In this document: positions 19,475 through 34,137 of the stretch, one piece after another
How positions within the stretch are numbered: position 1 is the stretch's first letter
How the letters are laid out: every line of letters begins with the position of its first letter
DNA from: an uncultured Selenomonadales bacterium
GTDB lineage: Bacteria > Bacillota > Negativicutes > Acidaminococcales > Acidaminococcaceae
Assembly (NCBI GenBank): GCA_900315805.1
Contig: ONAN01000002.1
Location: 151,701 to 215,700 of the forward strand
Length of the DNA: 64,000 nt
Direction: 5' to 3'
Notes under the pieces: model-generated
Seen by the model: only the letters and a program-made list of their open reading frames with translations
Database searches by the model: none
What the model was told of the DNA's origin: nothing
Translations under genes and position numbers: made by a program

Positions 19475-20566
19475 ATGCATATTCGTTTATTGGATAAATA
19501 TGTGCTGAAAGAGCTGCTTTATCCGTTCATTTTCGGCATTGCTTCCTTCTCCAGCATATTCATCGCCAGCAGCATGCTGTTCAAGATCGTCCAGTACATC
19601 ACCACGTACAACGCGCCCCTGTCGGCGGTCGGACGCATGTTCCTGTACAGCATGCCGCAGGTCATCAACTACACCTTCCCCATGTCCATGCTGCTTGCCA
19701 CGCTGATGGCGTTCGGCAAGCTGTCCAGCAGCAGCGAAATCGTAGCCATGAAATCGGGCGGCGTCAGCTACTACCGCATCGTGGCACCGGTCCTCGTGCT
19801 GGCCTTCATCGTCAGCATGTTTTCCGTCATCTGGGCGGAAAAGGTGGTGCCTCCCTGCAACGCGGAGCAGAAGCGCATCCTGCAGCAGGAGATCCGCGGC
19901 AACACGAAACCGCGTACGCAGGAACACGTGGTCATCAAGACCCTGAAGGGATCCACGCAGCGGATCACCTACGCCCGCTCCTTCAATGAATCGACGGGCA
20001 TCATGGACAAGGTGACCATCGAAGAATTCCAGAACAACAAGCTCGTCCGCGTCCAGACGGCCGACAAGGCCACCTGGGAAGGGGACAAGTGGGTCATGGA
20101 CCAGGGCACCGTCTACAGCCTCGATGACAAGGAAGGCGTGACGAGCAAAGCTACCTTCACCAACCAGGTCATTCCCTTGAACACCAAGCCCCGCGAAGTC
20201 AGCTGGGAACAGAAAGATGCCGACGAAATGACGCTGGGCGAATTGAAGGGCTATATCGCCGTGCTCGAACGGCAGAAACAGCCGACGTCCTATTACTGGA
20301 CGGAAATCTACATGCGCTTCGCCATTCCCCTGGCAAGCTTCGTCTTCGCGCTTCTCGGCGCTCCCCTGGGCACCCAGCGGCAGCGCAGCGGCTCGTCCAT
20401 CGGCCTGGGCATGAGCGTCATCGTCATTTTCGTCTACTACGGCATCATGGCCTTTACGACGGGTCTGGGCAAAGGCGGTATCATTCCGGCACCCCTGGCG
20501 GCTATGTCATCGAATATCGTCTGCCTCATCGCCGGCCTGTGGCTCCTGAAACGCGCCAATTACTGA
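19475..20566 (+). CDS. LptF/LptG (YjgP/YjgQ) family permease, single copy
   Basis: RLLDKY start, SEIVAMKSGGVSY, P.ASFVFALLG; follows lptB. Confidence 0.9.
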   Translation: MHIRLLDKYVLKELLYPFIFGIASFSSIFIASSMLFKIVQYITTYNAPLSAVGRMFLYSMPQVINYTFPMSMLLATLMAFGKLSSSSEIVAMKSGGVSYYRIVAPVLVLAFIVSMFSVIWAEKVVPPCNAEQKRILQQEIRGNTKPRTQEHVVIKTLKGSTQRITYARSFNESTGIMDKVTIEEFQNNKLVRVQTADKATWEGDKWVMDQGTVYSLDDKEGVTSKATFTNQVIPLNTKPREVSWEQKDADEMTLGELKGYIAVLERQKQPTSYYWTEIYMRFAIPLASFVFALLGAPLGTQRQRSGSSIGLGMSVIVIFVYYGIMAFTTGLGKGGIIPAPLAAMSSNIVCLIAGLWLLKRANY

Positions 20567-20653
20567 CCGGCCGTCGAACCCTGAAATATTACGCCCGGAA
20601 GCGGCCGGAAGCGGCTGCCCGGGTGGTTACCCTGTGAGAAAGGAGGCTGTGCC

Positions 20654-21874
20654 ATGCTTTTCGGAATCCGTCTGATGATCCTTTTGGCCATCATGGGCGG
20701 CGCCATTGCCTACATTGCCGACAAGCTGGGCAGCAAGATCGGGAAGAAGCGCCTGACCATCTTCAGTCTCCGTCCGCACGATACGTCGGTCCTCCTGACG
20801 GTTTTGTCGGGTGTACTCATTTCCCTCTGTTCCGTGCTCATCCTGGCTGTTTCCTCGAACAGTGCCCGCACGGCCCTGTTCGGTATGGAAAAGCTGCAGA
20901 ACGAGATCCGTACGCTCCAGGCGGGAAGGGAAACGGCCCTGAAGGAGTACGAATCCCTGCAGAATACCCTGAAGAGCAAGAACGAGGAAATCGCCGCTCT
21001 CGACAAAAAGATCAAGGAAGCCGACGCGGCGCGCCTGAAATCGGAAGAAAGCCTGCGGGCGGCCCAGAACGACCTGGAAGCGGCCCGTATCCAGTATGAA
21101 ACGACCCAGGGCGAACTGGTGGCGGCCCAAAGCGAGGTCAAAGGTCTCCAGGCAGCCCGTGACAGCCTGAATGAAGAAATCACGAAACTGCAGGAGCGCA
21201 CGAAACTCCTGAACGAAGGCCTGCTCCACATGCGCGAAGGCCAGCTGGTCTACCGCAGCGGCGAAGTCGTCTTCAACGGCGTCCTCGAAGGCGGCCGTTC
21301 GGCAGAGGAAAGCGCCAACCAGATGAAATGGCTCCTGGAATCGGCCAACAATACGGCCCTGAGCCGCATCGGTGTCGACCCGAAGGAAAAGGTCGAAGTG
21401 GTGTGGGTTCCCAAGACGGAATATGAAGCCCTTGAACAGCAGCTCCAGAAGGAACACGGCCAGGTTCTGGTACGCGTCCGTTCCATAGCCAATACGGTCG
21501 TGGGACAGCCTGTGGTCTGCCAGTTCGAAGTCATTCCCAATAAACTCGTATACCATGACAATCAGCTGATTTATCAGAAGGTCCTCAACATGGCGGACCA
21601 GTCCGTATCGCCGGAAGAAGTCATGATGAATTACCTGCAGGAAGTCAACCGCCTGTCTGTCGAAGCCGGTGTCCTGCCCGATCCCATGACCGGGAAGGTG
21701 GGCAACATCAGCGCCATGACGGTGGTCGATGTGCAGGAGAAGATGCGCCGCATGGGAGGCCAGGTCATGTTGACGGCCTATGCGGATGGCGACATCATGA
21801 CGGCCGGGCCCGTGCAGATCCGCCTGGAAGTGGAAAAGGTCGCTGCGGCGGACGAATCCATGCGCCGCTGGTGA
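20654..21874 (+). CDS. DUF3084-like membrane-anchored coiled-coil protein
   Basis: GGAIAYIADKLGSKIGKKRLTIFSLRPHDT N-terminus, two TMs, long coiled coil, globular C-terminus. Confidence 0.75.
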   Translation: MLFGIRLMILLAIMGGAIAYIADKLGSKIGKKRLTIFSLRPHDTSVLLTVLSGVLISLCSVLILAVSSNSARTALFGMEKLQNEIRTLQAGRETALKEYESLQNTLKSKNEEIAALDKKIKEADAARLKSEESLRAAQNDLEAARIQYETTQGELVAAQSEVKGLQAARDSLNEEITKLQERTKLLNEGLLHMREGQLVYRSGEVVFNGVLEGGRSAEESANQMKWLLESANNTALSRIGVDPKEKVEVVWVPKTEYEALEQQLQKEHGQVLVRVRSIANTVVGQPVVCQFEVIPNKLVYHDNQLIYQKVLNMADQSVSPEEVMMNYLQEVNRLSVEAGVLPDPMTGKVGNISAMTVVDVQEKMRRMGGQVMLTAYADGDIMTAGPVQIRLEVEKVAAADESMRRW

Positions 21875-21884
21875 GCCGGAGGAC

Positions 21885-22379
21885 ATGATGAAACCAATCC
21901 AACCGAACGCCCGGTACTATCTGGGCATCGATCCGGGCCGCGACAAGACCGGCCTGGCAATCGTCCGGGAGGACGGCGCCCTGCGCAGCCAGAAGGTGGT
22001 GCGGACGGGGTCCCTCCGGAACAGCATACCGGAATTCCTGGAAGAACGCCTGGTTTCGGGCAATGTCTGGAGCCTGCACCGTGTCCTGGCCGGCATCGTC
22101 ATCGGCAACGGCACGAACAGCGGACCCGTATGCAGTCTTGTCAAGGAATTGTTCCCGAGCGTACCCATCCATGAAATCGGGGAAGCCCATTCCACGGAAG
22201 AGGCACGCCGCCTGTATTGGAAAATCCACCCGCCCAAAGGCCTGCGCCGCCTCATCCCCCTGGGACTGCAGGTGCCGCCGGTACCGCTGGACGGATACGC
22301 CGCCGTGGTGCAGGTACGCCGTTACCTGGCCGCCCTGGCGGAACAGGAGGAAATCAAGAAAGAGGAGATGCGAACATGA
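21885..22379 (+). CDS. YqgF/RuvX-like RNase H-fold protein
   Basis: LGIDPGRDKTGLA, VIGNGT, EAHSTEEAR..YW, D.YAAV. Confidence 0.75.
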   Translation: MMKPIQPNARYYLGIDPGRDKTGLAIVREDGALRSQKVVRTGSLRNSIPEFLEERLVSGNVWSLHRVLAGIVIGNGTNSGPVCSLVKELFPSVPIHEIGEAHSTEEARRLYWKIHPPKGLRRLIPLGLQVPPVPLDGYAAVVQVRRYLAALAEQEEIKKEEMRT

Positions 22380-23983
22380 AAAAGATACTTTTTCTGCTGC
22401 TGACACTGCTGGTCCTGAGCGGCACCGCCCTGGCCCGCAATGTCATGCCCATCAAGCCCTTGTGTGAAATCGACCTGTACGGGGTCAACGATTTCCAGGG
22501 CCACATCACGGGCGGTACGGCGGAACCGGGTGCCCTGCGCCTGGCCGGCACGACGGAGACACTGACCAAACAGAATCCCTATGGCACGGCCTTCTTCGGC
22601 GGTGGCAACAACATGGCCGGCACCGAGGAAAACGACAAACGCATGGGCGATCCCACCATCATGATGCTCAACGCCATGCACATTTCCGCTACCGTACCCG
22701 GTGCGAAGGATTTCCAGTACCAGGCGTACAACATCGCGAACCAGGCCGCCACGTCGTATTTCGCGTACCTGGCTGCCAACATCGTCGACGCCAATGGCAA
22801 CACGGCGTCGCCGTATAAACCGTATCTGCTGTTCAACCGCGCCGGCGCCGAAATCGGCGTCATCGGCCTCGCAGGCCAGGATGTGGTGGAACCTGCCAAG
22901 GCCCGCGGCTACAACGTGGTTCCGGCAGCCAAGGTGGCACAGCAGTGCGTCAATGAACTGCGCAACAACGGTGCCAAGATCGTCGTCCTGCTGACCAGCC
23001 TCAAGGGCGAAGGCATCGGCGACAAGAAGATCACCGGTGAAATCACGTCCCTGCTGGACCAGGTGACCGGCGTCGACGCCGTCTTCCTGGCCGGTACGGG
23101 CAAAGAAGTGCGCGGCACCTACAAGAACATTCCGGTCGTGGCTGCAGCTCCCTTCGGCACGCAGCTGGCCCAGATCCATTTCCTGTACAACCGCGTGGAC
23201 AAGAAGGTCCTCGTCGGCGTGGCCAAGACGGTCGATGTCATGGCCCTGTCCTACGAAGAGAACAAACAGCTCGAAAAGACCTATAACCGTCTTATGAGCG
23301 GCACGGGCACGCGCCTGGGCAATCTGCCGCCGTCCTATGTGCCGACCCAGAAGAAGGACAAGAAATCCAAGACCAGCATCTACCAGAACGTCAACGGATC
23401 CGTCAACGAAGCTCCGCAGCCCGCATCCAAGGGCGCCAAACTGGCGGACAACCTGACGGCGCTGACGAACTACCCCGGCGGCCAGTCCACGCTGGGCGAA
23501 TACTTTACGGACATGGTCCGCAAAGCCTATAACTGCGACATCGTCCTGTATCCGGGCAGCTCCTTCCGGTACAGCATCCCGGCCGGTGACATCAACGAAG
23601 GTACCATCACTTCCGTCATGCCCTACAAGGACAGCATCGTCACGGGCCAGCTGACGGGCTCCCAGATCCGCGCCATCATCGAGCACGGCCTCAATCCGGG
23701 TACGGGCCTGATCCGCTTCTCCGGCCTCCATGTGACGGCCCGCATCAACAATCCGGAAGGTTCCCGCATCGCTTCGATTGAGCTGGAGAACGGCCAGAAG
23801 CTGCAGAACGACGCCACCTACGTGGTCGCTGTAAGTTCCCGTATGGTCGAAGGCGCCGACGGGTACAACCTGAGCTATCTGGCAAACGCCGGCAACAAGG
23901 GCCCTGCCCAGGACTTCTTCAAGTTCTTCCTGCGTTATGCCAAGACCGTCGACTACAAAGGGGACGGCCGCCTGAGATTCTGA
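22376..23983 (+). CDS. Secreted 5'-nucleotidase/CpdB-like protein with a degenerate metallophosphatase domain
   Basis: Signal peptide; recognisable calcineurin-like N-domain and 5'-nucleotidase C-domain (STLGEYFTD, MPYKD.IV...LTG.QI, RFSGL); ATGA overlap with the upstream gene. Confidence 0.8.
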   Translation: MKKILFLLLTLLVLSGTALARNVMPIKPLCEIDLYGVNDFQGHITGGTAEPGALRLAGTTETLTKQNPYGTAFFGGGNNMAGTEENDKRMGDPTIMMLNAMHISATVPGAKDFQYQAYNIANQAATSYFAYLAANIVDANGNTASPYKPYLLFNRAGAEIGVIGLAGQDVVEPAKARGYNVVPAAKVAQQCVNELRNNGAKIVVLLTSLKGEGIGDKKITGEITSLLDQVTGVDAVFLAGTGKEVRGTYKNIPVVAAAPFGTQLAQIHFLYNRVDKKVLVGVAKTVDVMALSYEENKQLEKTYNRLMSGTGTRLGNLPPSYVPTQKKDKKSKTSIYQNVNGSVNEAPQPASKGAKLADNLTALTNYPGGQSTLGEYFTDMVRKAYNCDIVLYPGSSFRYSIPAGDINEGTITSVMPYKDSIVTGQLTGSQIRAIIEHGLNPGTGLIRFSGLHVTARINNPEGSRIASIELENGQKLQNDATYVVAVSSRMVEGADGYNLSYLANAGNKGPAQDFFKFFLRYAKTVDYKGDGRLRF

Positions 23984-24001
23984 TTTTAAGGGGAATACCG
24001 T

Positions 24002-24640
24002 ATGACCGAGAAATTCGCGGACCAGCAATTCCGCAACTTCGTATATGATTTGAATTCGTCCAAACCGTCGCCGGGCGGCGGCAGTGCCGCCGCCTTCGCG
24101 GGGGCCATGGCCGGCGCGCTGGCCGGTATGGCCGCCCACCTGACGGTCGGCAAGAAAAGCTACGCCGACGTGGAAGACGAAATGCAATCCGTCATTGCCT
24201 CGTCGGAAGCGCTGCAGCACGAAATGCTGGCAATGGCCCAGGAGGACGCCGATATGTTCGGCCTCATCCTGAACGCCTACAAAATGCCGAAAAGCACGCC
24301 GGAGGAACGGGAGAAGCGGCAGGCCGAAATCGAGCGGGCGAGCAAAATCGCCGTCCTGGCCTCCCTGCACCTGTCCGAAACGTGCATCGACATTCTGCGC
24401 CTGGCGGAAAAAGTGGTCGGCAAAGGCAGCCGTATGCTGGTGACAGACGGCGCCGCCTCGGCCATCCTGGCCCGCGCCTGCCTGCGCATTGCCGCCTACA
24501 ACGTCACGGCCAACCTGAAACCGGTCCGGGACAAGGACTTCGTGTACCAGTGCGAAGTGCGGCTGCGTGCCTGCCGCGACCTGGGCGAAAGCCTGGAGCA
24601 GGATATTCTGGACGCGGTCAACGGCGAACTCGGCAAATAA
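24002..24640 (+). CDS. Cyclodeaminase/methenyl-THF cyclohydrolase family (FTCD_C)
   Basis: SSKPSPGGGSAAAFAGAM, LTVGKKSY, AYNV.ANL. Confidence 0.85.
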   Translation: MTEKFADQQFRNFVYDLNSSKPSPGGGSAAAFAGAMAGALAGMAAHLTVGKKSYADVEDEMQSVIASSEALQHEMLAMAQEDADMFGLILNAYKMPKSTPEEREKRQAEIERASKIAVLASLHLSETCIDILRLAEKVVGKGSRMLVTDGAASAILARACLRIAAYNVTANLKPVRDKDFVYQCEVRLRACRDLGESLEQDILDAVNGELGK

Positions 24641-24680
24641 GGTGCCGTCGGGCTGCAAACGTGGTATAATGTCATAGCCT

Positions 24681-24770
24681 GGAGAGGTGGCCGAGCGGTT
24701 TAAGGCTCTAGTCTTGAAAACTAGCGAGGTGTCAAAGCTTCCGTGGGTTCGAATCCCACCCTCTCCGCCA
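24681..24770 (+). tRNA. tRNA-Ser(UGA)
   Basis: GGAGAGG acceptor, CTAGT-CTTGAAA-ACTAG anticodon arm, long variable arm, GTTCGAATC, CCA end; TGnTATAAT at 24662-24670 upstream. Confidence 0.96.
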
Positions 24771-24784
24771 TATAAAGAAACAGC

Positions 24785-24816
24785 AAGGGCCATATCCGTC
24801 AGGATATGGCCCTTTT
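24785..24816. terminator. Bidirectional terminator between tRNA-Ser and the ABC operon
   Basis: AAGGGCCATATCC-GTCA-GGATATGGCCCTTTT. Confidence 0.8.
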
Positions 24817-24827
24817 AGTATGCCTTG

Positions 24828-25949
24828 TTAAGCTTTGATAGCGCCCATGCGCACCGTGGCGCCGCTTTCCTTGTCGAAGAGCAGGTTCTTGTCCGTCCGG
24901 ATATCGAACCGGACTTCTTCGTTGACCCGGAAATCGACGCTGCCGAAAATGACGGAGGTCAGGGGCTGGTCGTGCAGATGCAGTTTGACGACGGTTTCCA
25001 TACCGGAGGGCAGGGTGGAGTACACCTTGCCGCTGAAGCGGCCTTCAGGACGGATGACGATGTTTTCCGGCCGGATGCCGACGACGTATTCCTTTCCGTC
25101 TGTCACGGGGGCATCCGTATACCGCTTCGCTTCCACGAAGCGGACCGGCTCGCCGCCGAAGTCCAGCTGGTCGCCGCCGTCCACTGTCTGGCCGGCGCGG
25201 GCCGGCACCAGGTTGATGCTCGGGCTGCCGATGAAGTCTGCCGTGAACATGTTGACCGGTTCGTTGTAGACCGTCAGGGGCGCGTCGTACTGCTGCAGGA
25301 TGCCTTCCTTGATGAGGCAGATCCGCGTGGCCAGCGTCATGGCTTCCAGCTGGTCGTGGGTTACGTAGATGAAGGTGGCGCCGGTCTCCATGTGGAGCCG
25401 TTTCAGTTCCGCCCGCATCTCCATGCGGAGCTTGGCGTCCAGGTTAGACAGGGGTTCGTCCATGAACAGGGTCGACGGGCCCGTGGACAGGGTCCTGGCA
25501 ATGGCCACGCGCTGCTGCTGGCCGCCCGACAGTTCCGACGGATAGCGGTCGCGGTACTCGGAAATCCGCAGCATCGCCATCAGTTCCCGCGCGCGGGCTT
25601 CCATCTTGTCCTTGGGCCAGTGCAGGTTCTCCAGGCCGAAGGTGATGTTCTGGTATACCGTCATATGGGGCCACAGGGCGTAGTTCTGGAACAGGAACCC
25701 GACGCCGCGCTTTTCCGGCGGGATGTCGATGCCTTTTTCTGCGGAAAAGACCACCTTGCCGCCGATGGAGATTTCGCCGTACGTCGGTGTCTCCAGACCG
25801 GCAATCATGCGCAGGGTCGTCGTTTTACCGCAGCCGGAGGGGCCCAGCAGCGTAATGAAGGAATGATCGGGAATGACCATGCTGAGATGATCTACAGCTG
25901 CCGTCTTCCCGTACATCTTCGTGACATCTTTCAAAATGATTTCAGGCAT
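24828..25949 (-). CDS. ABC transporter ATP-binding subunit (FbpC/AfuC/MalK-like with TOBE)
   Basis: [34 protein letters not shown]. Confidence 0.93.
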   Translation of the reverse strand: MPEIILKDVTKMYGKTAAVDHLSMVIPDHSFITLLGPSGCGKTTTLRMIAGLETPTYGEISIGGKVVFSAEKGIDIPPEKRGVGFLFQNYALWPHMTVYQNITFGLENLHWPKDKMEARARELMAMLRISEYRDRYPSELSGGQQQRVAIARTLSTGPSTLFMDEPLSNLDAKLRMEMRAELKRLHMETGATFIYVTHDQLEAMTLATRICLIKEGILQQYDAPLTVYNEPVNMFTADFIGSPSINLVPARAGQTVDGGDQLDFGGEPVRFVEAKRYTDAPVTDGKEYVVGIRPENIVIRPEGRFSGKVYSTLPSGMETVVKLHLHDQPLTSVIFGSVDFRVNEEVRFDIRTDKNLLFDKESGATVRMGAIKA

Positions 25950-26037
25950 TTTTGCACCTTCCTAATTTCTATCGTTTGCGGAAGTCCGATCCGTTTCCGG
26001 CCGGTATCCGCCGCTACATCTCACGGTTCCGCCGCTG

Positions 26038-27828
26038 TCAGCCGATACCCTTGTCGATGGAGGCGCCGGTCAGCTTGTTGATGATGAAGTTGGACAGCAG
26101 CACGACGCCGACGATCAGCAGGTTGATGGCGTTGGCATACTGGTTCCAGCCTTTTTCGTTGTACTGGAACAGCATGGTCGTCAGGACGGCCGTGGACGGC
26201 GTAATCAGCAGGATGAACAGCGACAGTTCGCGCATGCAGGAAATGAACGGCAGCAGGTAGCCGGACAGGAAACTCGTCTTCTGAATGGGGATGATGATGC
26301 GCACCATGCGCTTCCACCAGCCGATGCCCATCATGATGCCCGCTTCCTCAATCTGGCCGCCCAGCTGCAGCATGGCGTTGACGGCGGATTTCGATGCGAA
26401 GGGCAGGTATTTGACCGAACCAATCAGCACCAGGATGGCGAAGGTGCCGTACAGTGCCGGCACCGGGCCGTGCGGCGTGGAGAAGAAGGACAGGTAGATG
26501 GCGCCCATGGCCATGCTCGGCAGCAGGTACGGGAAAAAGGTAAGATGGCTTACGGCGTTGCTCAGCCAATGTCCTTTGCGGTGGACGATGGCGTAGCCTG
26601 CCAGGATACCGACCGTGCCCGCGATGAAGGCGCAGCAGACGGACAGCACGAAGCTGTTGACCAGTCCGTGGAGGATGCTGGCGTTCCGCAAAATGCCGGG
26701 TTCGCCGTTGGCGATGTCGACCGACCCTTCACCGGTCCAGAACACGGTGCTGAAGTTACTCAGGGAGTAGTTGCCCGGTTCCACGATGAAGGATTCGACG
26801 GCAAAGGTGATCAGCGGCACCACGGTGATGCACAGCAGCAGGAAACCCATGGCGTAGGACAGGGGGTTCCGCAGGCCCCGCAGGTTGAAGAGGGACACGT
26901 TGGAGCTTTTGCCCGTAATGGTCGTGTAGGACTTCCGGCTGTCCAGGACGCGCTGGTTCAACAGCATGATGGAGACGCCGATCAAAATCAGGATGAGGGC
27001 CATCAGGTAGCCGTAGCCAGGGTTCATGCCCTGCAGCGTACGGTACATCTGCGTCGTCAGGACCTGGTAGCGTACGGGCGTACCGAGGAAGGCCGGGACG
27101 GCGAAGGCACTCATGGAGCTGGAGAAAGCGAGCAGGAACGTGGACAGGATGGCCGGTTTGACCATCGGCAGGGTGATGCGGCGGATAATCTGCATACGCG
27201 ACGCGTACAGCAGCTGTGCCGCCTCTTCCAGGTTGGCGTCCATGTTCTTTAAGATGCCGCCTATCAGAATATAGGCAAAGGGAGCGTAATGCAGGCCCTG
27301 CACGATGGAGATGGGCAGGAACCCGTAGGCGAACCAGTCCGGCGTCGTCAGTCCCGTCACAACCGTGAACAGGCCGGGCACACCGCCGACCAGGGGGTTA
27401 TGGAAAAAGTTGACCCAGGCCAGAGCCAGCGTCCAGGACGGCATAATGTACGGGACCACGAATAAGGCCGATAATACGTTCTTGAACCGGATATTGGTCC
27501 GCGTAATGAGCCAGGCCATGATGCCGCCCAGGGAAATGGCGATGGCGCAGGTGGCAAAGGAAATGCAGATGGTGTTGAACAGGGGACGGTAGAAGATGCT
27601 GACGCTCGTATCCCCGTCCAGCAGCACCTTCGTCCAGTGGTATAAGGTGAAGCTTCCCACATGGCTGCCCCGGATGCGCATCACTTCGCTGGAATGCACC
27701 GTGAAGGTGTCGGCGACGATGGAGAGCAGGGGCAGGAACGTGAGGAGCATCAGGGCCACGAACAAGACGACCAGGATGATGTTATGTGGTTTGTTGCAGA
27801 AACTGCGCAACCGGCTTCGAAAGCCCAT
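26038..27828 (-). CDS. ABC permease with two TM modules (FbpB/AfuB type)
   Basis: About 596 aa; two EAA loops (NLEEAAQLL, QIEEAGIMMG); GGAGG RBS before ATG 27828. Confidence 0.9.
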   Translation of the reverse strand: MGFRSRLRSFCNKPHNIILVVLFVALMLLTFLPLLSIVADTFTVHSSEVMRIRGSHVGSFTLYHWTKVLLDGDTSVSIFYRPLFNTICISFATCAIAISLGGIMAWLITRTNIRFKNVLSALFVVPYIMPSWTLALAWVNFFHNPLVGGVPGLFTVVTGLTTPDWFAYGFLPISIVQGLHYAPFAYILIGGILKNMDANLEEAAQLLYASRMQIIRRITLPMVKPAILSTFLLAFSSSMSAFAVPAFLGTPVRYQVLTTQMYRTLQGMNPGYGYLMALILILIGVSIMLLNQRVLDSRKSYTTITGKSSNVSLFNLRGLRNPLSYAMGFLLLCITVVPLITFAVESFIVEPGNYSLSNFSTVFWTGEGSVDIANGEPGILRNASILHGLVNSFVLSVCCAFIAGTVGILAGYAIVHRKGHWLSNAVSHLTFFPYLLPSMAMGAIYLSFFSTPHGPVPALYGTFAILVLIGSVKYLPFASKSAVNAMLQLGGQIEEAGIMMGIGWWKRMVRIIIPIQKTSFLSGYLLPFISCMRELSLFILLITPSTAVLTTMLFQYNEKGWNQYANAINLLIVGVVLLSNFIINKLTGASIDKGIG

Positions 27829-27918
27829 ACTTGATTCCTCCTGAAAAGGCACCGGCGTCGTTCCCGGCACCGGTGCCCTTAATATACAGTTACGACAGGA
27901 CGGTCCGTCCGCCGCAGG

Positions 27919-29076
27919 TCAGATCAGCTTGCTGATGAATTCTTCCACTTCGGCGCGATGCTCGAAGATGAACTGCGGGTCGTCGCCGACCAGTACCTTG
28001 GCCCATTCGCTCAGCGCCTTGTCGCCCTTGGCGCCCTTCAGCGTCTTGTTGCCGGAATAGGAGCCCATGTCGCTCTGCCAGTACTTATACCCTTCTTCCG
28101 TCATGAGGAAGCGGATGAACAGTTTGGCGGCCGCCGGATGCTTGGCATCTTTCACCAGCAGCACGTATTCCGGATAGTAGAAGCCGGCGAACGGCGTCAC
28201 CGTGTCCGCCACGCCCAGTGCCAGGTTCTTCTTCGCGGCATAACGGATCTTGGAATAGTTCAAGAGGCCGATGCTGTTGATGTTCTGTCCCTTGACGCCG
28301 ATGGATTCGGTCATCTTCGTATCGCTGGAGCCCATGACGAGGCCGTTCTGGAAGGCCATCTTGATCCATTCGTAACCGGCGTTCTTCGTGGTCAGTTTCA
28401 GGTCCTTGCCATACAGGTCCTTATAGGCCTTGGCCAGTTTGTCAGCGTTTTCCGGTTTGGTCAGCATGGTCAGGAAGTTGGCGTTAATGCCTTCCTGCAG
28501 AGGGCTCTTGAAGAAGAACTTACCCTTGTTCTTCGGATCCGTCAGCTCCCACAGGTTCTTGATCGGCGCCGGTTTGCCGTTTTCGTTGTTATACATGAGG
28601 ACTTTGTTCATATACAGGAACACCAGGGGCTTGCGGTTCTCTGCCGGAATCTGGTCTTCCAGGTCGGCCGGCACATAGTTCTGCAGGTAGCCCGTGGAAA
28701 GCAGTTCGCCATAAACACGGCCGCTGTCCTGCGCAATGACGAAGTCCGCACCCTCAGCCTTGGCCTTGACTTCCGTCGTGATTTTGTCGATCAGCTCGAA
28801 GTCCTTCATGTCGGTGGCTTCGACCTTGATGCCGTACTTCTTTTCAAAGGCCGCGCCGGCCTTGCTGATGCGGCTGGTGATGGAGTAGACCCGGACCTTG
28901 CCTTCCTTCTTGGCCTGCGGAATCAGGTCCGCCTCTTTTTCACCCTTTACCTCGACGATCTTCATGCCGTTTCCGGCCGCAGGCGCCTCCGCCTTCTTAT
29001 CGCCGCCGCCACCGCAGCCACCGGCCAACAGGCCGATTGTGAGCAGGACACTTGCTGCCGCCATCCATTTTTTCAT
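27919..29076 (-). CDS. ABC substrate-binding lipoprotein (Fbp/AfuA-like cluster)
   Basis: Lipobox LAGGC; AFEKKYGIKV; HPAAAKLFIRF; GGAGG RBS. Confidence 0.88.
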   Translation of the reverse strand: MKKWMAAASVLLTIGLLAGGCGGGGDKKAEAPAAGNGMKIVEVKGEKEADLIPQAKKEGKVRVYSITSRISKAGAAFEKKYGIKVEATDMKDFELIDKITTEVKAKAEGADFVIAQDSGRVYGELLSTGYLQNYVPADLEDQIPAENRKPLVFLYMNKVLMYNNENGKPAPIKNLWELTDPKNKGKFFFKSPLQEGINANFLTMLTKPENADKLAKAYKDLYGKDLKLTTKNAGYEWIKMAFQNGLVMGSSDTKMTESIGVKGQNINSIGLLNYSKIRYAAKKNLALGVADTVTPFAGFYYPEYVLLVKDAKHPAAAKLFIRFLMTEEGYKYWQSDMGSYSGNKTLKGAKGDKALSEWAKVLVGDDPQFIFEHRAEVEEFISKLI

Positions 29077-29180
29077 TTGATTCGCCTCCGTTATCAACGT
29101 ATCCGGCCCGATGTACCCTGCCGTTTCGTGGGAAAACGGCACGGAATCCGTCTCTGCCGGACCAAATTAACTACATATAA

Positions 29181-29231
29181 ATTATACCACTTTGTAAATA
29201 TTCTGTAAAAAGTCTGTAAAAAGAATGTAAA
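29181..29231 (-). promoter_or_regulatory. Promoter of the ABC operon: extended -10 plus four TTTACA direct repeats at 11-bp period (Pho-box-like)
   Basis: Minus strand reads TTTTTTACATT CTTTTTACAGA CTTTTTACAGA ATATTTACAAA GTGGTATAAT. Confidence 0.7.
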
Positions 29232-29269
29232 AAACCTCACGGCCCTTCCGGGGAGGGAAACCGTGAGGT
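29229..29269 (-). terminator. glyA terminator
   Basis: ACCTCACGG / CCGTGAGGT stem with a T-run on the minus strand. Confidence 0.65.
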
Positions 29270-29324
29270 GATGGTGTCCGTATTGAATCTGCTTTGCGTC
29301 CGTACGGCGGTACGGCAGCGCCGC

Positions 29325-30578
29325 TTATTCCATGCCGGGATAGAGCGGGTACTTTTTGCACAGTTCCGCAATGCGGGCGTTGCAGTCGGCCGTGACTTTT
29401 TCGTCGTCGGGGTGGTTCAGGATATCGACCATGACCTTGCCGATGACGCGCATGTCGTCTTCCTTCATGCCGCGGGTCGTGAGGGCTGCCGTGCCCAGGC
29501 GGATGCCGCTCGTCACGAAGGGGCTTTCCGTCTCGTTGGGGACGGTGTTCTTGTTGACCGTGATGTGGACCGTGTCCAGGAGTTTTTCCGCCTGCTTGCC
29601 GTTGATGCCCTTGTTGCGGACATCGATGAGGATCAGGTGGTTGTCCGTGCCGCCCGTGACCAGGTTGCAGCCGCCTTTGAGCAGCTCGTCGGCCAGGGCC
29701 TGGGCGTTTACGATGATGCCGTGGGCGTATTCCTTGAAGGAAGGCTGCAGGGCCTCTTTCAGGGCGACGGCCTTGGCGGCGATGACGTGCATCAGGGGAC
29801 CGCCCTGCATGCCCGGGAAGACGGCCTTGTCGATGGCCTTGCCGAACTGTTCACGGCACAGGATCAGGCCGCCGCGGGGTCCGCGCAGGGTCTTGTGGGT
29901 CGTGGTGCTCACGATGTCGGCGTAGGGCACAGGGCTCGGATGATACCCTGCGGCAACCAGGCCGGCGATGTGGGCCATGTCCACGAAGAGCAGGGCGCCG
30001 TTGTCGTGGGCGATTTCCGCGAATTTGGCGAAGTCGATGATGCGGGGGTAGGCGCTGGCGCCGGCGACGATCATCTTCGGTTTCAATTCTTTGGCCATTT
30101 TGGCGACAGCGTCGTAGTCGATGCGCTGCGTTTCCGGATTCAGTCCGTAGCCGTGGAAATCATACAGCGTGCCCGAGGCATTCACTTTGCTGCCGTGGGT
30201 CAGGTGGCCGCCGTTGGACAGGTCCATGCCCAGCACGGTGTCGCCCGGCTTCAGCGTGGCGAAGTAGACGGCCAGGTTGGCCTGCGCGCCGGAATGGGGC
30301 TGCACGTTCGCGTGTTCCGCGCCGAACAGCTTTTTGGCCCGCTCGATGGCCAGGTTTTCCGCTATATCCACGAACTGGCAGCCGCCGTAATAGCGGTGTC
30401 CGGGATATCCTTCGGCGTACTTGTTCGTCATGACACTGCCCATGGCCTCCATGACGGCGACGCTCGTATGGTTTTCAGACGCAATCATTTCCAGATTGTT
30501 CTGCTGCCGTTCCTTTTCCAGTTCAATGGCATTGTAAATCTCTTCATCTACGGCTTTCAGTTCCGGTTTTTCCAGCAT
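29325..30578 (-). CDS. glyA: Serine hydroxymethyltransferase
   Basis: [44 protein letters not shown]. Confidence 0.98.
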
Positions 30579-30827
30579 GATTCAGACCCCCTGACAAAAA
30601 TAGACATGATAGTTCACTTTATTTCCGCGCCCCTTTGGGTTTGCGGTCCCAGGAAAGGGATACATCGTGATTCATAAGCTCATTATACCAAATTTCCGAC
30701 CCTTTGCAATGAAACGGCGGCAAAAGGGACGTTTTCCGGGAAAATATACAAAAAAGTGTAAAGCCGTTGCGCCAAACCGCCCGAATGTCTGATATAATGA
30801 TGGTATTAATGTACGGAGGTTCTACTC

Positions 30828-31784
30828 ATGGCCAACATGGAAAAACGCATCAAGAAAATTTCCGAAAGCATCCTCGCCGATTATGCAAAAGGCCGTACCA
30901 TTGACAAGAGCACGGGCTTTTCCGGACCGGACATGGACGCGGTCATCGATATTCTGGACAAACTGCAGAAAATCCTGTTCCCGGGCTATTTCCGCATCAA
31001 GTCCTATCATTATTACACGGCGGAAAACAACCTGCAGACTTTGGTGGAAGATGTCCTGTTCAATCTCAGCAAGCAAATCACCCGCTTCATCCGCTTCCTG
31101 CCGGAATACGCCGACAAGGATTACCGGACCTGCCAGAACCGCGGGCAGGAGCTGGCCCTGGAGTTCATGTCGCGCATCCCGAAGATCCGCGACCTGGTCG
31201 ATTCCACGGTGCAGGCCGAGTACGACGGCGACCCGGCGGCGTTCAACAAGGACGAGATCATCTACTGCTACCCCGGCATGTACGCCATCATGGTCTTCCG
31301 CCTGGCCCACGAGTTCTATGAGCTGAACGTGCCCATGCTGCCGCGCATCATGACGGAATACGCCCACGGCAAGACGGGCATCGATATCCATCCCGGCGCC
31401 ACCATCGGCCGCAATTTCTTCATTGACCACGGCACGGGCATCGTCGTCGGCGAGACGACGGTCATCGGCAACAACGTGAAGGTCTACCAGGGGGTCACCA
31501 TCGGCGCCCTGTCGACCCGCGGCGGCCAGAAGCTGCACGGCAAAAAGCGCCATCCGACCATCGAGGACAACGTCACCATCTATTCCGGTGCCTCCATTTT
31601 GGGCGGCGACACGGTCATCGGCCACGATTCCGTCATCGGCGGCAACACCTTCATCACCATGTCCGTACCGCCCGGATCGAATGTCAGCATCAAGAGCCAG
31701 GAACTGCACTTCAACGACGACAACAAGCCCGATTCCAAGCCCAAGGACCTGGAACAGGCCGAAACCTGGTTCTATACGATTTGA
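30828..31784 (+). CDS. cysE: Serine O-acetyltransferase (long EpsC-like form)
   Basis: DGDPAA, YPG, GIDIHPGATIG, IDHGTG, KRHPTIED. Confidence 0.9.
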   Translation: MANMEKRIKKISESILADYAKGRTIDKSTGFSGPDMDAVIDILDKLQKILFPGYFRIKSYHYYTAENNLQTLVEDVLFNLSKQITRFIRFLPEYADKDYRTCQNRGQELALEFMSRIPKIRDLVDSTVQAEYDGDPAAFNKDEIIYCYPGMYAIMVFRLAHEFYELNVPMLPRIMTEYAHGKTGIDIHPGATIGRNFFIDHGTGIVVGETTVIGNNVKVYQGVTIGALSTRGGQKLHGKKRHPTIEDNVTIYSGASILGGDTVIGHDSVIGGNTFITMSVPPGSNVSIKSQELHFNDDNKPDSKPKDLEQAETWFYTI

Positions 31785-31787
31785 TTG

Positions 31788-31816
31788 TTGACAAATCCGC
31801 TCCTGCATGCTATTAT
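31788..31816 (+). promoter_or_regulatory. Sigma-A promoter of rplU-prp-rpmA
   Basis: TTGACA-17 nt-TATTAT with a TG extension. Confidence 0.8.
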
Positions 31817-31821
31817 TTTTC

Positions 31822-31922
31822 AGTATGGACGATTCCCGCTCCGGGCGTAGTCCGTCCCCAACCGCTCAACGAGGTTCCGTAAACTTTTCCTCCGGAAAAG
31901 TACCGAAATTGGCGAGTATACG
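31822..31922 (+). ncRNA. Probable L21 ribosomal protein leader
   Basis: Structured roughly 120-nt 5' UTR of rplU with hairpins and a terminal GGCGAGT motif that I recall from Firmicute L21 leaders; not confirmed by a covariance search. Confidence 0.45.
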
Positions 31923-31940
31923 ATAAGGGAGGTGCAACAC

Positions 31941-32252
31941 ATGTACGCAATCATCAAAACCGGCGGCAAACAGTATCGTGTACAGGAAGGCGATGTCCTG
32001 AATGTAGAAAAGCTGGATGCCGAAAAAGACGCTGAAGTAGTATTTGACGAAGTCCTGGCTATCGTGAACGACGGTGAAGTCACTGTCGGCAAACCGGTAG
32101 TGGAAGGTGCCAAGGTTACCGCTACTGTCGTGGAACAGGGTAAAGCGGACAAAGTCCTGGTCTTCAAATACAGAGCTAAATCCAACTACCGCAAACGCGC
32201 TGGCCATCGTCAGCCGTTCACGACCGTTAAGATCAGCGGCATCCAGGCTTAA
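31941..32252 (+). CDS. rplU: 50S ribosomal protein L21
   Basis: [21 protein letters not shown]. Confidence 0.98.
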
Positions 32253-32263
32253 TCTGGAACGTC

Positions 32264-32605
32264 ATGATCACGATCGAAATCAGCAAGAACAAGTCGGGCC
32301 TCTACACGGGCTACCGCGCCAAAGGGCACGCCAAGGACGCGCCGGCGGGGGAGAGCGTGGTATGCGCCTGGGTTTCCGCGGTGACGCAGATGACCCTCAT
32401 CGGCTTGGAAAGCGAATTGAAATTTCCCGTCGCGTATACGGCGGATCCGGAATCGGGTCTCCTGGCAGTTCAGCTGCAGAAGGAACCCGATGCAAAAAGC
32501 CAGCTGCTGATCGGGTCCATGGTACGGACCTTGCGGCAATTGGCAGCAGAATGTCCCAAAGATGTTCGAGTTCGCGAACATGGAGGTGAAAGTACGAATG
32601 TTTAA
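32264..32605 (+). CDS. prp: Ribosomal-processing cysteine protease Prp
   Basis: GHA...VVCAWVS catalytic His/Cys; between rplU and rpmA. Confidence 0.9.
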
Positions 32606-32888
32606 GATTATTCTGCAGTTACATGCACATAAAAAAGGTACCGGTTCTTCCCACAACGGCCGTGATTCCAACGCACAGCGCCTGGGCATCAAGGCTCACG
32701 AAGACAAGGTTGTGACCGCCGGCAGCATCATCATGCGCCAGCACGGCACCAAGTTCCATCCCGGCAAAAACGTCGGCATGGGCCGCGACTACACCATCTA
32801 CGCCAAAGTGGACGGCAAAGTCAAATTTGAACGCGTAGGCCGCGACGGCCGTCAGATCAGCGTTTACCCCGTTGAAAAGGAAGCCTGA
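32598..32888 (+). CDS. rpmA: 50S ribosomal protein L27 with N-terminal extension
   Basis: [25 protein letters not shown]; GGAGGT RBS. Confidence 0.97.
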
Positions 32889-32903
32889 TTCCTGATTAAC
32901 CTG

Positions 32904-32936
32904 TATCCTCCCTGGATTTCCGGGGAGGATATTTTT
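32904..32936 (+). terminator. Terminator after rpmA
   Basis: TATCCTCCCTGGA / CCGGGGAGGATA plus TTTTT. Confidence 0.75.
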
Positions 32937-33006
32937 ATATGCCTGCGGCCGGCAACGTGATATAATAAGCTATCTTTTGCAATCATCCTTCTGGGGGTAT
33001 CCGGTC

Positions 33007-34137
33007 TTGAAACGAAATCTCGTCATCGATCATCTGCGCGGCCTGGCCATGCTCGGCGTCATCGGCATCCATATCGGCACCTTCGTGCTCGATTCCTCGA
33101 CGCCGCGCCTGGACATTTTTCTGCTGCTGCAGATTTTCACGCGCTTTGCCGTGCCCGCGTTCTTCTTCATTTCGGGCTACGGCCTCTTCTGCAATGACGC
33201 GCTGCACAAGCCGTTCCATTACGTGGCTTCCGTGCGGCACCATCTGCGCACGGTCGGCGTGCCGTACCTGGTCTGGTCCCTGTTCTATATCGCCTTGTGG
33301 CAGCGAGAAGACATGATCCGCCCCGACGGCAGCTTTTCCCTGTCGGTCCTGATCGTCAAGCTGCTGCTGGGGGAAGGCTGCTACCATATCTACTTCCTCG
33401 TGATCCTGCTGGGATTCTATTTCACCCTGCCGTTCTGGCGCTGGCTGGTACGCGTCACGGACCGCGGGACGAAGCTGGGCACGGGCCTGTGCCTGGCGGT
33501 GCTGGCGGCCCTGCAGCTTGCCCTGTACCATTGGAACGCCGTCTATTGGAGCTATCCGGGCTGGACGGCCCACTATAAGATCATCATCCGTTTGCTGAAC
33601 GAGCGCATGAACTACATCCCGCTGTTTTACGGGTTCGTGTTCGTCCTGGGCGGCCTCTGCGCCGTTCACGAGGACGCCGTGCGCGGCTGGCTGCGGACGC
33701 ACCTGGGGACGACGCTGGCGCTGCTGCTCGTGTCCTGCGGTGTCTACCTGCACAGCTTTTTCGGGTATCTGGCGGGCGGCATGGAGCTGGCCTCCATTCC
33801 GGAACACCTGACGCAGCTCACGCCGCAGGGGCTGCTTTACACGGTCTGCTGGCTGCTCTTCTTCTGCGCCCTTCTGGAACGCCTGTCCGGGCACCGGCTG
33901 CTCTTCCTGAAGGTGCTTTCGGCGTATTCCATGGTCATCTACCTGATCCACCCCTGGTTCATCAATTTCTGGTACAGCGCCCTGGGCTGGCTGGGCTTTG
34001 CCTTCGACCAGGTCCCCGTGCTGCTGTTCTATGTCCTGGTGCTCCTGTCGTCCCTGGCGGCCGGCATGGTGATCCAGGCCCTGGCGGCGCGGTTCCGTAC
34101 CTTCGGCATCCTCGTCCTCGGGCGGCAGCCGGGTTAA
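33007..34137 (+). CDS. Acyltransferase-3 family (OafA/WecH-like) multi-pass O-acyltransferase
   Basis: IDHLRGLAMLGVIGIH, RFAVPAFFFISGY, YH.YF, YSMVIYLIHP; TTG start with GGGGG RBS; TGnTATAAT at 32958-32966. Confidence 0.85.
   Translation: MKRNLVIDHLRGLAMLGVIGIHIGTFVLDSSTPRLDIFLLLQIFTRFAVPAFFFISGYGLFCNDALHKPFHYVASVRHHLRTVGVPYLVWSLFYIALWQREDMIRPDGSFSLSVLIVKLLLGEGCYHIYFLVILLGFYFTLPFWRWLVRVTDRGTKLGTGLCLAVLAALQLALYHWNAVYWSYPGWTAHYKIIIRLLNERMNYIPLFYGFVFVLGGLCAVHEDAVRGWLRTHLGTTLALLLVSCGVYLHSFFGYLAGGMELASIPEHLTQLTPQGLLYTVCWLLFFCALLERLSGHRLLFLKVLSAYSMVIYLIHPWFINFWYSALGWLGFAFDQVPVLLFYVLVLLSSLAAGMVIQALAARFRTFGILVLGRQPG

Follow-up and report, generated by a model that had tools for sequence, protein, structure and literature searches.

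The window analysed here is a stretch of 64,000 nucleotides from contig ONAN01000002.1 (positions 151,701 to 215,700 of the forward strand) of assembly GCA_900315805.1, the genome of an uncultured Selenomonadales bacterium of the Acidaminococcaceae. On its minus strand, four TTTACA hexamers lie over the promoter of a three-gene ATP-binding cassette (ABC) importer operon that follows glyA. By its sequence, this array is most likely a site for an OmpR-family response regulator, namely PhoP. On balance, it is probable that the array would be bound by phosphorylated PhoP (PhoP~P) and that the operon would belong to the periphery of the Pho regulon, as a member specific to this species. The source genome (G000; 2.01 Mb, 59% GC, 48 contigs, to which the C numbers below refer) encodes five OmpR-family regulators, and contigs identical to the source were found in human gut metagenomes. 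By these contigs, an encoded autotransporter and the closest homologs of the SBP (substrate-binding protein) described below, the source is a gut Negativicute. The array and its promoter are as follows.

29193 to 29231, minus strand: four-hexamer TTTACA array (29231-29226, 29220-29215, 29209-29204 and 29198-29193), a candidate PhoP (OmpR-family) site, from the sequence, a genome scan and Markov simulations.
29181 to 29209, minus strand: sigma-A-type promoter with the -35 TTTACA at 29209-29204 (repeat 3), a 17-nt spacer that holds repeat 4 and the extended -10 TGgTATAAT (TATAAT at 29186-29181), from a promoter scan.

Read on the minus strand from 29240 to 29175, this region was GTGAGG TTTTTTACATT CTTTTTACAGA CTTTTTACAGA ATATTTACAAAG TGG TATAAT TTATAT. 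All four hexamers (4/4) were perfect, their period was exactly 11 bp, and the neighbouring 11-mers CTTTTTACAGA at 29222-29212 and 29211-29201 of the minus strand were identical. On the plus strand, the hexamers corresponded to TGTAAA from 29226, 29215, 29204 and 29193. The promoter scored 11/12 with the TG and was the sole match of the promoter scan within 28900-29400. Its transcription start is predicted from the -10 to lie near 29174, which places the array at about -57 to -19. Repeat 4, which is proximal to the promoter, ended 6 bp ahead of TATAAT and 3 bp ahead of the TG, while the T's of the distal repeat 1 were common to the U-tract of the glyA terminator. No Fur-type box was found at the promoter, where the E. 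coli consensus was matched at no more than 10/19 positions and the 7-1-7 box at no more than 9/15. The initial annotation had described the four positions with their 11-bp period and twin 11-mers, the second repeat (counted from the promoter) at the -35, the gap of 6 bp between array and -10, the overlap of the distal repeat with the terminator U-tract as a caveat and the lack of an obvious Fur-type palindrome, all of which agreed with our results, given that the 6 bp are measured to TATAAT. An RNA-level role of the repeats was considered and rejected, because the array is upstream of its own -10 and downstream of the glyA terminator and is therefore not expected to be transcribed.

When the whole genome was scanned for sets of four TTTACA-like hexamers spaced 10-12 bp apart (maximum score 24), the window array was the only 24/24 match. 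Five intergenic arrays scored 21/24 or higher, whereas Markov simulations of order 2 and order 4 predicted 0.00-0.05. The array is non-random.

The genome was also scanned for phoPR and for the same array at pstS, as the initial annotation had proposed. The scan found a phoP-phoR-pstSCAB-phoU cluster as well as TTTACA-type boxes at the pstS and ugpB-like promoters. The gene order of the cluster at C23:42.1-49.1 kb was phoP-like regulator, PnpS/PhoR-like kinase, pstS, pstC, pstA, pstB and phoU, with the PhoP gene at C23:42187-42867. PstS (TIGR02136, 243 bits) and PhoU (151 bits) scored above their cut-offs of 206.6 and 130 bits, respectively; the phoP-like regulator and the PhoR-like kinase scored under the equivalog cut-offs, and their identity comes from gene context. 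The pstS promoter read TTTACA-N4-TTTACA-N5-TATACG-N5-CTTACA-N9-TAGGAT, with TGn ahead of the -10 and no usable -35. This layout was kept in the genomes G007, G005 and G034, the last of which belongs to another family, and more distant Negativicutes possessed TTAACA repeats at the corresponding position of pstS. Similar to pstS, the promoter of a UgpB-like substrate-binding protein (SBP) operon on C12 had this layout, and TATACGGAACGCTTACA was common to both. A regex scan found the 'half-site-N9-TAGGAT' form in G000 only at these two promoters. The PHO box of Bacillus subtilis is given as four TT(A/T/C)ACA repeats at an 11-bp period in a passage of PMC11870197 that cites Eder 1999, and the pstS box of Lacticaseibacillus paracasei, (T/A)T(T/G)ACA x4, is supported by electrophoretic mobility shift assay (PMC11870197). 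Given that phoPR-pst is encoded, that conserved boxes were found at the pstS and ugpB-like promoters and that they match the published boxes, TTTACA repeated every 11 bp is the form of PHO box that G000 uses.

To assign a regulator to this word, 19 genomes of the genus, including G000, were compared. The phoPR-pstSCAB-phoU genes were patchy and occurred in only 4-5 of the 19 species. PhoP orthologs with more than 80% identity were found only in G000, G007, G005 and G012, and G006, G013 and G014 had PhoP homologs at 48-51% identity. Triple TTTACA arrays were found only in G000 and its closest relative G007. A WalR-like regulator, however, was encoded by all 19 genomes with identities of 74-97%; its best NCBIfam match was YycF (253 bits, under the cut-off of 340). 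The SBP operon of the type found on C24 was conserved with its promoter in 14 of these genomes. In its leader, a TTTACA-N5-TTTACA pair scored at least 11/12 in all five pstS-positive genomes (G000, G007, G005, G012 and G006), whereas the pair score was 8/12 or lower in all seven pstS-negative genomes examined, where the leader was of a hairpin type. By chance, a leader of 100 nt would hold such a pair with a probability of 0.00055, and the Fisher p for pair versus pstS was 0.0013, calculated for lineages that are not independent, as G000, G007, G005 and G012 are one clade to which G006 is added. Between G000 and G007, the half-sites were kept while the spacers changed. Given that TTTACA pairs follow the presence of pstS/phoP and not the ubiquitous WalR-like gene, PhoP would be the best candidate regulator; the phyletic pattern that appears to favour PhoP over the WalR-like regulator is supportive rather than decisive.

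The leaders of the C24-type operon were of two kinds. At C24:39.7-39.9 kb (L076 1374-1500) and in the orthologs L077-L087, the promoter TTGAGA-17-TGnTATAAT was kept. The leaders from phoPR/pst-positive genomes contained up to seven 11-bp TTTACA/TTTGCA units, and those from pst-negative genomes contained a hairpin whose arms varied among species (AACTTGC/GCAAGTT vs AAACAT/ATGTTT). This difference looks like a swap of regulatory device.

The genome scan also gave other arrays in G000. The array at C24:39824 was ahead of a PhnS2-like SBP-ATPase-permease operon; it was downstream of an 11/12 promoter, TTGAGA-17-TGcTATAAT, and reached the ribosome-binding site. The array at C23:57316 was between an SSS-family transporter gene and a second PhnS2-like SBP operon, which also held transketolase halves and a class II aldolase/epimerase. 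The two paralogous SBPs with arrays matched PhnS2 with 184 and 144 bits (n = 2). On C11 at 4.9 kb, hexamers at an 11-bp period but in mixed orientation were found upstream of a fourth FbpABC-like operon. In G007, a distinct, species-specific FbpB-like cassette had an array downstream of TTGAAA-17-TGaTATATT. The sister arrays at C24 and in G007, which are placed differently from the boxes of pstS and ugpB, are in operator-like positions. Finally, the array at C4:4450 was upstream of an autotransporter gene.

Several features were observed at these loci. At C23:57100-57440, the array consisted of five TTTACA units, with the palindrome AAATTGTgcaaACAATTT alongside. The adjacent operon (C23:57407-63836; PhnS2-like SBP, permease, ATPase, split transketolase and class II aldolase/epimerase) had a lower GC content at third codon positions (GC3) of ~0.6 and is possibly an island for sugar-phosphate uptake and catabolism. 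At C11:3136-10161, a DtxR/MntR-like repressor gene adjoined the fourth FbpABC-like operon, which contained two tandem SBPs, and the upstream hexamers TTTACG/TGTAAA/TGTAAA/TTTACA/TGTAAG were mostly 11 bp apart. At C4:4400-4460, four TTTAC(A/T) units with a period of 10 bp, not 11 bp, were just upstream of a TTGACG-18-TACAAT promoter that drives an 813-aa autotransporter whose passenger had no Pfam domain. Moreover, C33:18.3 and 22.0 kb and G007:C9:12.6 kb carried a repeated element, in which TTTACA-like units were upstream of a TTGACA-17-TTATAT promoter and by clusters of DnaA boxes (TTATCCACA); it is probably the oriC/dnaA region.

The operon downstream of the window array, its flanks and its leader are as follows.

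29325 to 30578, minus strand: glyA (serine hydroxymethyltransferase), the gene upstream of the operon (Pfam SHMT 575 bits; NCBIfam PRK00011 645 bits).
29229 to 29269, minus strand: intrinsic terminator of glyA, a hairpin at 29269-29234 with a T-run at 29234-29229 that overlaps repeat 1 (RNA fold -21.1 kcal/mol, z = -2.77).
29077 to 29174, minus strand: 5' leader of ~100 nt, whose long-range hairpin does not sequester the GGAGG ribosome-binding site (minimum free energy -34.9 kcal/mol, z = -2.27).
27919 to 29076, minus strand: lipoprotein SBP of 385 aa with an FbpA-like cluster-D fold (Pfam SBP_bac_8/11/1; AlphaFold2 (AF2); Foldseek).
26038 to 27828, minus strand: fused two-domain ABC permease of 596 aa from ATG 27828, in an open reading frame (ORF) open from GTG 27870 (BPD_transp_1 x2).
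24828 to 25949, minus strand: ABC ATPase of 373 aa with a MalK-type OB/TOBE regulatory tail (ABC_tran, OB_MalK, TOBE_2).
24774 to 24812, minus strand: operon terminator GGGCCATATCC-TGAC-GGATATGGCCC followed by a T-rich tail, as read from the sequence.
24681 to 24770, plus strand: tRNA-Ser(TGA), convergent with the operon (ARAGORN; Rfam tRNA 60 bits).

The start of the permease follows the gene call of the identical contig L055. The best NCBIfam match of the permease was PhnU2 (160.8 bits, far under the cut-off of 593) and that of the ATPase was UgpC (334.8 bits, under the cut-off of 432). A riboswitch or other leader RNA was rejected, as an Rfam scan of 20000-34000 gave tRNA only and the leader had no Rfam match (E<=1); nor was the leader conserved in the orthologs examined. 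Beyond the tRNA, a 588-aa ORF (22217-23983, plus strand) matched in Pfam only the 5'-nucleotidase C-terminal domain, with no metallophosphatase match at E<=0.01. An 823-aa ORF (22322-24793, minus strand), which overlaps both this ORF and the tRNA and had no family match, is probably spurious.

Compared to the closest relatives, the operon with its promoter and own glyA terminator (24774-29269) is an indel between glyA and tRNA-Ser(TGA). In G007 (C34), G012 (C9) and G005 (C1), the terminator after glyA was a different one. The tRNA-Ser that flanks the operon came directly after glyA in G007, the closest relative, and in this comparison it marks the right-hand end of the indel. Recent horizontal transfer was considered and rejected: the GC3 of the operon (0.80-0.85) equals the genome mean, so that the operon is native-like or long resident. 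The closest homologs of the SBP were from metagenome-assembled genomes of Acidaminococcaceae and Schwartzia. The orthologs of low-GC Acidaminococcaceae (79-83% identity; L031-L035) were directly after citD-citE-citF, and their upstream regions had T-tracts phased at ~11 bp without TTTACA. These loci also held a DctM-type transporter and a LysR regulator, and in two contigs the locus was interrupted by an IS66-family transposase. The neighbours of other orthologs were larA, chemoreceptor genes, rubrerythrin or unrelated genes and differed per lineage.

The AF2 model of the SBP had a pLDDT (predicted local distance difference test score) of 91.9. In Foldseek searches, the metal-citrate binder MctA was first, with FutA, HitA, FbpA, MotA, VcA0625 (a glucose 6-phosphate binder) and P5PA nearly equal; for these FbpA-like fold matches, the probability was 1.0, the TM-score (template modelling score) about 0.6-0.8 and the identity 14-20%. 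For the top matches MctA, FutA and FbpA, the TM-score was about 0.6-0.7 and the identity 17-20%. No NCBIfam match was found for the SBP at E<=0.01, including PhnS, PhnS2 and UgpB, and its matches to Protein Data Bank (PDB) sequences were weak and confined to the N-lobe. AfuA binds sugar phosphates through the motif H205-D206-E229 together with S37/T150 (PMC4546632). In the profile match of the SBP to the AfuA structure 4R72, only the N-lobe was aligned (E = 4e-7) and the C-lobe residues H205-D206-E229 were not. Of the ligand residues of MctA (S26, D28, S79, S164, T199 and Y221), S26 is replaced by I66, D28 by S68 and the S79 region by Q116/D117 in the alignment, and the MctA ligand residues are not kept. 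Metal-citrate, which had been considered as the ligand because of the citDEF link and the MctA top fold, was rejected for this reason. The position of the FbpA Tyr-Tyr pair (Tyr195/196), when mapped indirectly via the alignment to MctA Y221, was Y/F274 (Phe in 8 of 49 sequences) followed by S/T275, and the SBP apparently lacks the Tyr-Tyr iron site. The family-invariant residues were Arg/Lys mixed with Asp/Glu, Asn and aromatics, and this composition suggests an organic anion or a sugar derivative as a possible ligand. Assignment of a ligand from gene neighbourhood was also attempted and rejected, since each lineage had neighbours of its own; none of 8 ortholog neighbourhoods contained a linked phosphatase, phosphonatase or sugar-phosphate gene. 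The SBP family has more than 600 members from gut and rumen Negativicutes and Spirochaetes, and its mean column identity was 59% in an alignment of 49 sequences. Automatic annotation labels this family as iron(III) transport. Despite this label, the lack of a Fur box at the promoter and the apparent lack of a Tyr-Tyr site lend moderate support to the earlier proposal that the substrate is not iron, at least in that the ligand is not bare Fe3+.

In the mechanism that we favour, the four TTTACA hexamers would be a high-affinity tandem site for a response regulator of the OmpR/PhoB family. The most probable regulator would be the PhoP encoded with phoR, pstSCAB and phoU, which would bind one face of the helix as a pair of head-to-tail dimers. 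This PhoP site would overlie the near-consensus sigma-A promoter from about -57 to -19, and the promoter would drive a self-contained three-gene importer consisting of the lipoprotein SBP, the fused permease and the MalK-type ATPase. Bound to half-sites 3 and 4, PhoP would be a competitor of sigma region 4. In B. subtilis, PhoP~P both activates and represses, as for example at tagAB/tagDEF. If PhoP binds the window array, PhoP~P may boost the promoter or, only slightly less probably, may dampen or occlude it. The 3-bp shift of the array sets half-site 3 at the ideal -35 spacing, and the promoter should therefore fire without an activator. Given that the sister arrays are downstream of strong promoters, repression is as plausible as induction. 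Of the earlier proposal that an OmpR/PhoB-type regulator places the operon in the phosphate regulon, the assignment to the regulon gained from the local PHO-box word, the presence of phoPR-pst and the pairs that track pstS/phoP. Its claim of induction was not supported, given the near-consensus -35 with extended -10, the array 3 bp out of register and the sister arrays downstream of strong promoters.

Several results weigh against assigning the array to PhoP and the operon to the Pho regulon. The gap between the last half-site and the -10 is 6 bp in the window and 9 bp at pstS and ugpB, so that the array is 3 bp out of register, and the 11/12 promoter with its TG looks activator-independent. 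Two of the four units are identical 11-mers, and part of the array could stem from a recent slippage duplication. The half-site, when read on the other strand, is also that of WalR-type regulators, and a WalR/YycF-like regulator is encoded. The co-occurrence of arrays and phoPR comes from few independent lineages (one clade and G006). None of the 18 other species of the genus had an ortholog of the operon; the best match there was 37% identical over half of the protein. Finally, no TTTACA array was found upstream of the orthologs at 54-83% identity (L031-L036 and L072-L075). Thus, the conservation upstream of orthologs that the initial annotation had suggested examining was not observed in any ortholog. 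The upstream DNA of these orthologs was unrelated to that of the window, and that of same-species gut contigs was identical. Phylogenetic footprinting of the array was therefore rejected, as the operon is missing in 18 congeners and the ortholog upstream DNA is unrelated.

Among the alternatives, binding of the array by another OmpR-family regulator, either the WalR/YycF-like one (C24:177868-178584) or a paralog (C17:54615-55307), with repression via the -35, is unlikely. The WalR (YycF) box is TGTWAH-N5-TGTWAH, and the plus strand of the array, TGTAAA-N5-TGTAAA twice, fits it. The match of the WalR-like regulator to YycF (253 bits), the presence of five OmpR-family regulators in the genome, a TGTAAA-N5-TGTGAA pair upstream of the WalR-like gene itself and the operator-like positions of the arrays, which fit a repressor, are also consistent with this possibility. 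However, WalR-like orthologs were in 19/19 genomes and the arrays and pairs were confined to pstS/phoP-positive ones, the boxes conserved at pstS and ugpB use this word as well, and WalR is known to control cell-wall metabolism rather than transporters. Distinctly unlikely is an array without a dedicated regulator, in which slippage duplicated an 11-bp unit containing the -35 and the phased T-tracts bend DNA or act as an UP-like element or a decoy -35 at a constitutive promoter. The two identical adjacent 11-mers would be expected from such duplication. TTTACA matches the -35 consensus at 5/6 positions and one of the copies serves as the -35, T-tracts phased at ~11 bp lacked TTTACA upstream of the orthologs of low-GC relatives, and on C33 TTTACA-like repeats flank a strong TTGACA promoter by DnaA boxes. 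However, UP and bending elements do not work from within the spacer, which holds repeat 4, and the arrays at C24 and in G007 are downstream of the -10, in leaders. Slippage also leaves unexplained the restriction to phoPR-positive genomes and does not account for hexamers that are conserved while spacers drift.

The complete model of the initial annotation, in which PhoP~P activates the operon upon phosphate starvation and the importer takes up an organophosphate (sugar phosphate, phosphonate or glycerophosphodiester), is rather doubtful. Its regulatory half draws on the strand, orientation, count and period that the array shares with pstS/ugpB and on the span of -57 to -19, which fits the B. 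subtilis core binding region; the promoter, on the other hand, appears activator-independent, with the array 3 bp out of register. With regard to the ligand, the two array-bearing SBP paralogs are PhnS2-like (184 and 144 bits), the invariant Arg/Lys, aromatic and acidic residues are in line with such a substrate, and some FbpA-like SBPs, namely AfuA, P5PA and VcA0625, do take phosphorylated ligands (PMC4546632; PDB 6WCE and 8X1A). However, the window SBP matched none of PhnS, PhnS2 and UgpB, the 8 ortholog neighbourhoods contained no phosphatase, phosphonatase or sugar-phosphate gene, the best fold match was a metal-citrate binder and some orthologs follow citDEF.

A broader form of the PhoP assignment, which we regard as improbable, is that in the phoPR-carrying clade PhoP has captured the FbpABC-like importer class by means of arrays that overlie, or directly follow, strong promoters which would otherwise be constitutive. 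This capture would include at least four loci (the window, C24:39.8 kb, C23:57.3 kb and C11:4.9 kb) and the G007 cassette, with the array replacing, in one conserved operon, the hairpin-type leader that congeners without phoPR have. If so, PhoP would mainly repress, by occluding the promoter or as a roadblock, or would be a dual switch, and the actual substrates of the 'iron(III) SBP' family would be organic anions that are linked to phosphorus or compete with phosphate. The window site is most likely an OmpR-family switch of an ordinary kind, and the transporter that it would control is an orphan whose SBP family is uncharacterised. If PhoP binds there, the Pho regulon of an uncultured human-gut Negativicute would extend to an orphan ABC importer, and the array would offer a clean natural case of a perfect PHO box of four units on a consensus promoter, in which one could ask what makes OmpR-family regulators activate or repress. 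The SBP family has more than 600 members, no solved relative with more than 20% identity and apparently no iron ligands, and its widespread annotation might be corrected as were those of AfuABC and P5PA.

Compared to known systems, the window array is similar to the PHO box of the B. subtilis type, which is also that of L. paracasei pstS, phnD and glnA, in its four hexamers, 11-bp period, location on the coding strand at ~-60 to -20, the encoded PhoPR and the word shared with pstS/ugpB. Different from that box, all hexamers of the window array are perfect, and the array lies over a consensus promoter rather than replacing a missing -35. Compared to the canonical Pho promoters of G000 itself, the window array is 3 bp closer to the -10. 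It is not kept at orthologs. Similar to the B. subtilis tagAB/tagDEF operators that PhoP~P represses and to ArcA-type multi-repeat operators, direct repeats overlap or follow a functional promoter in the window and at the sister arrays of C24 and G007, although orientation and exact positions differ. Similar to the WalR box, the plus strand contains TGTAAA-N5-TGTAAA twice and a YycF-like regulator is encoded. Different from WalR targets, however, the arrays track phoPR and the target is a transporter, not cell-wall genes. Finally, the importer shares with the FbpABC/AfuABC/PhnSTUV cluster-D importers (FbpA, FutA, MctA, AfuA, P5PA and PhnS) the SBP with an FbpA-like fold, the fused permease of 2x6 transmembrane segments and the MalK-like ATPase. 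The window SBP differs from these relatives in having an identity of only 14-20% and no curated family match, and its family is a distinct one.

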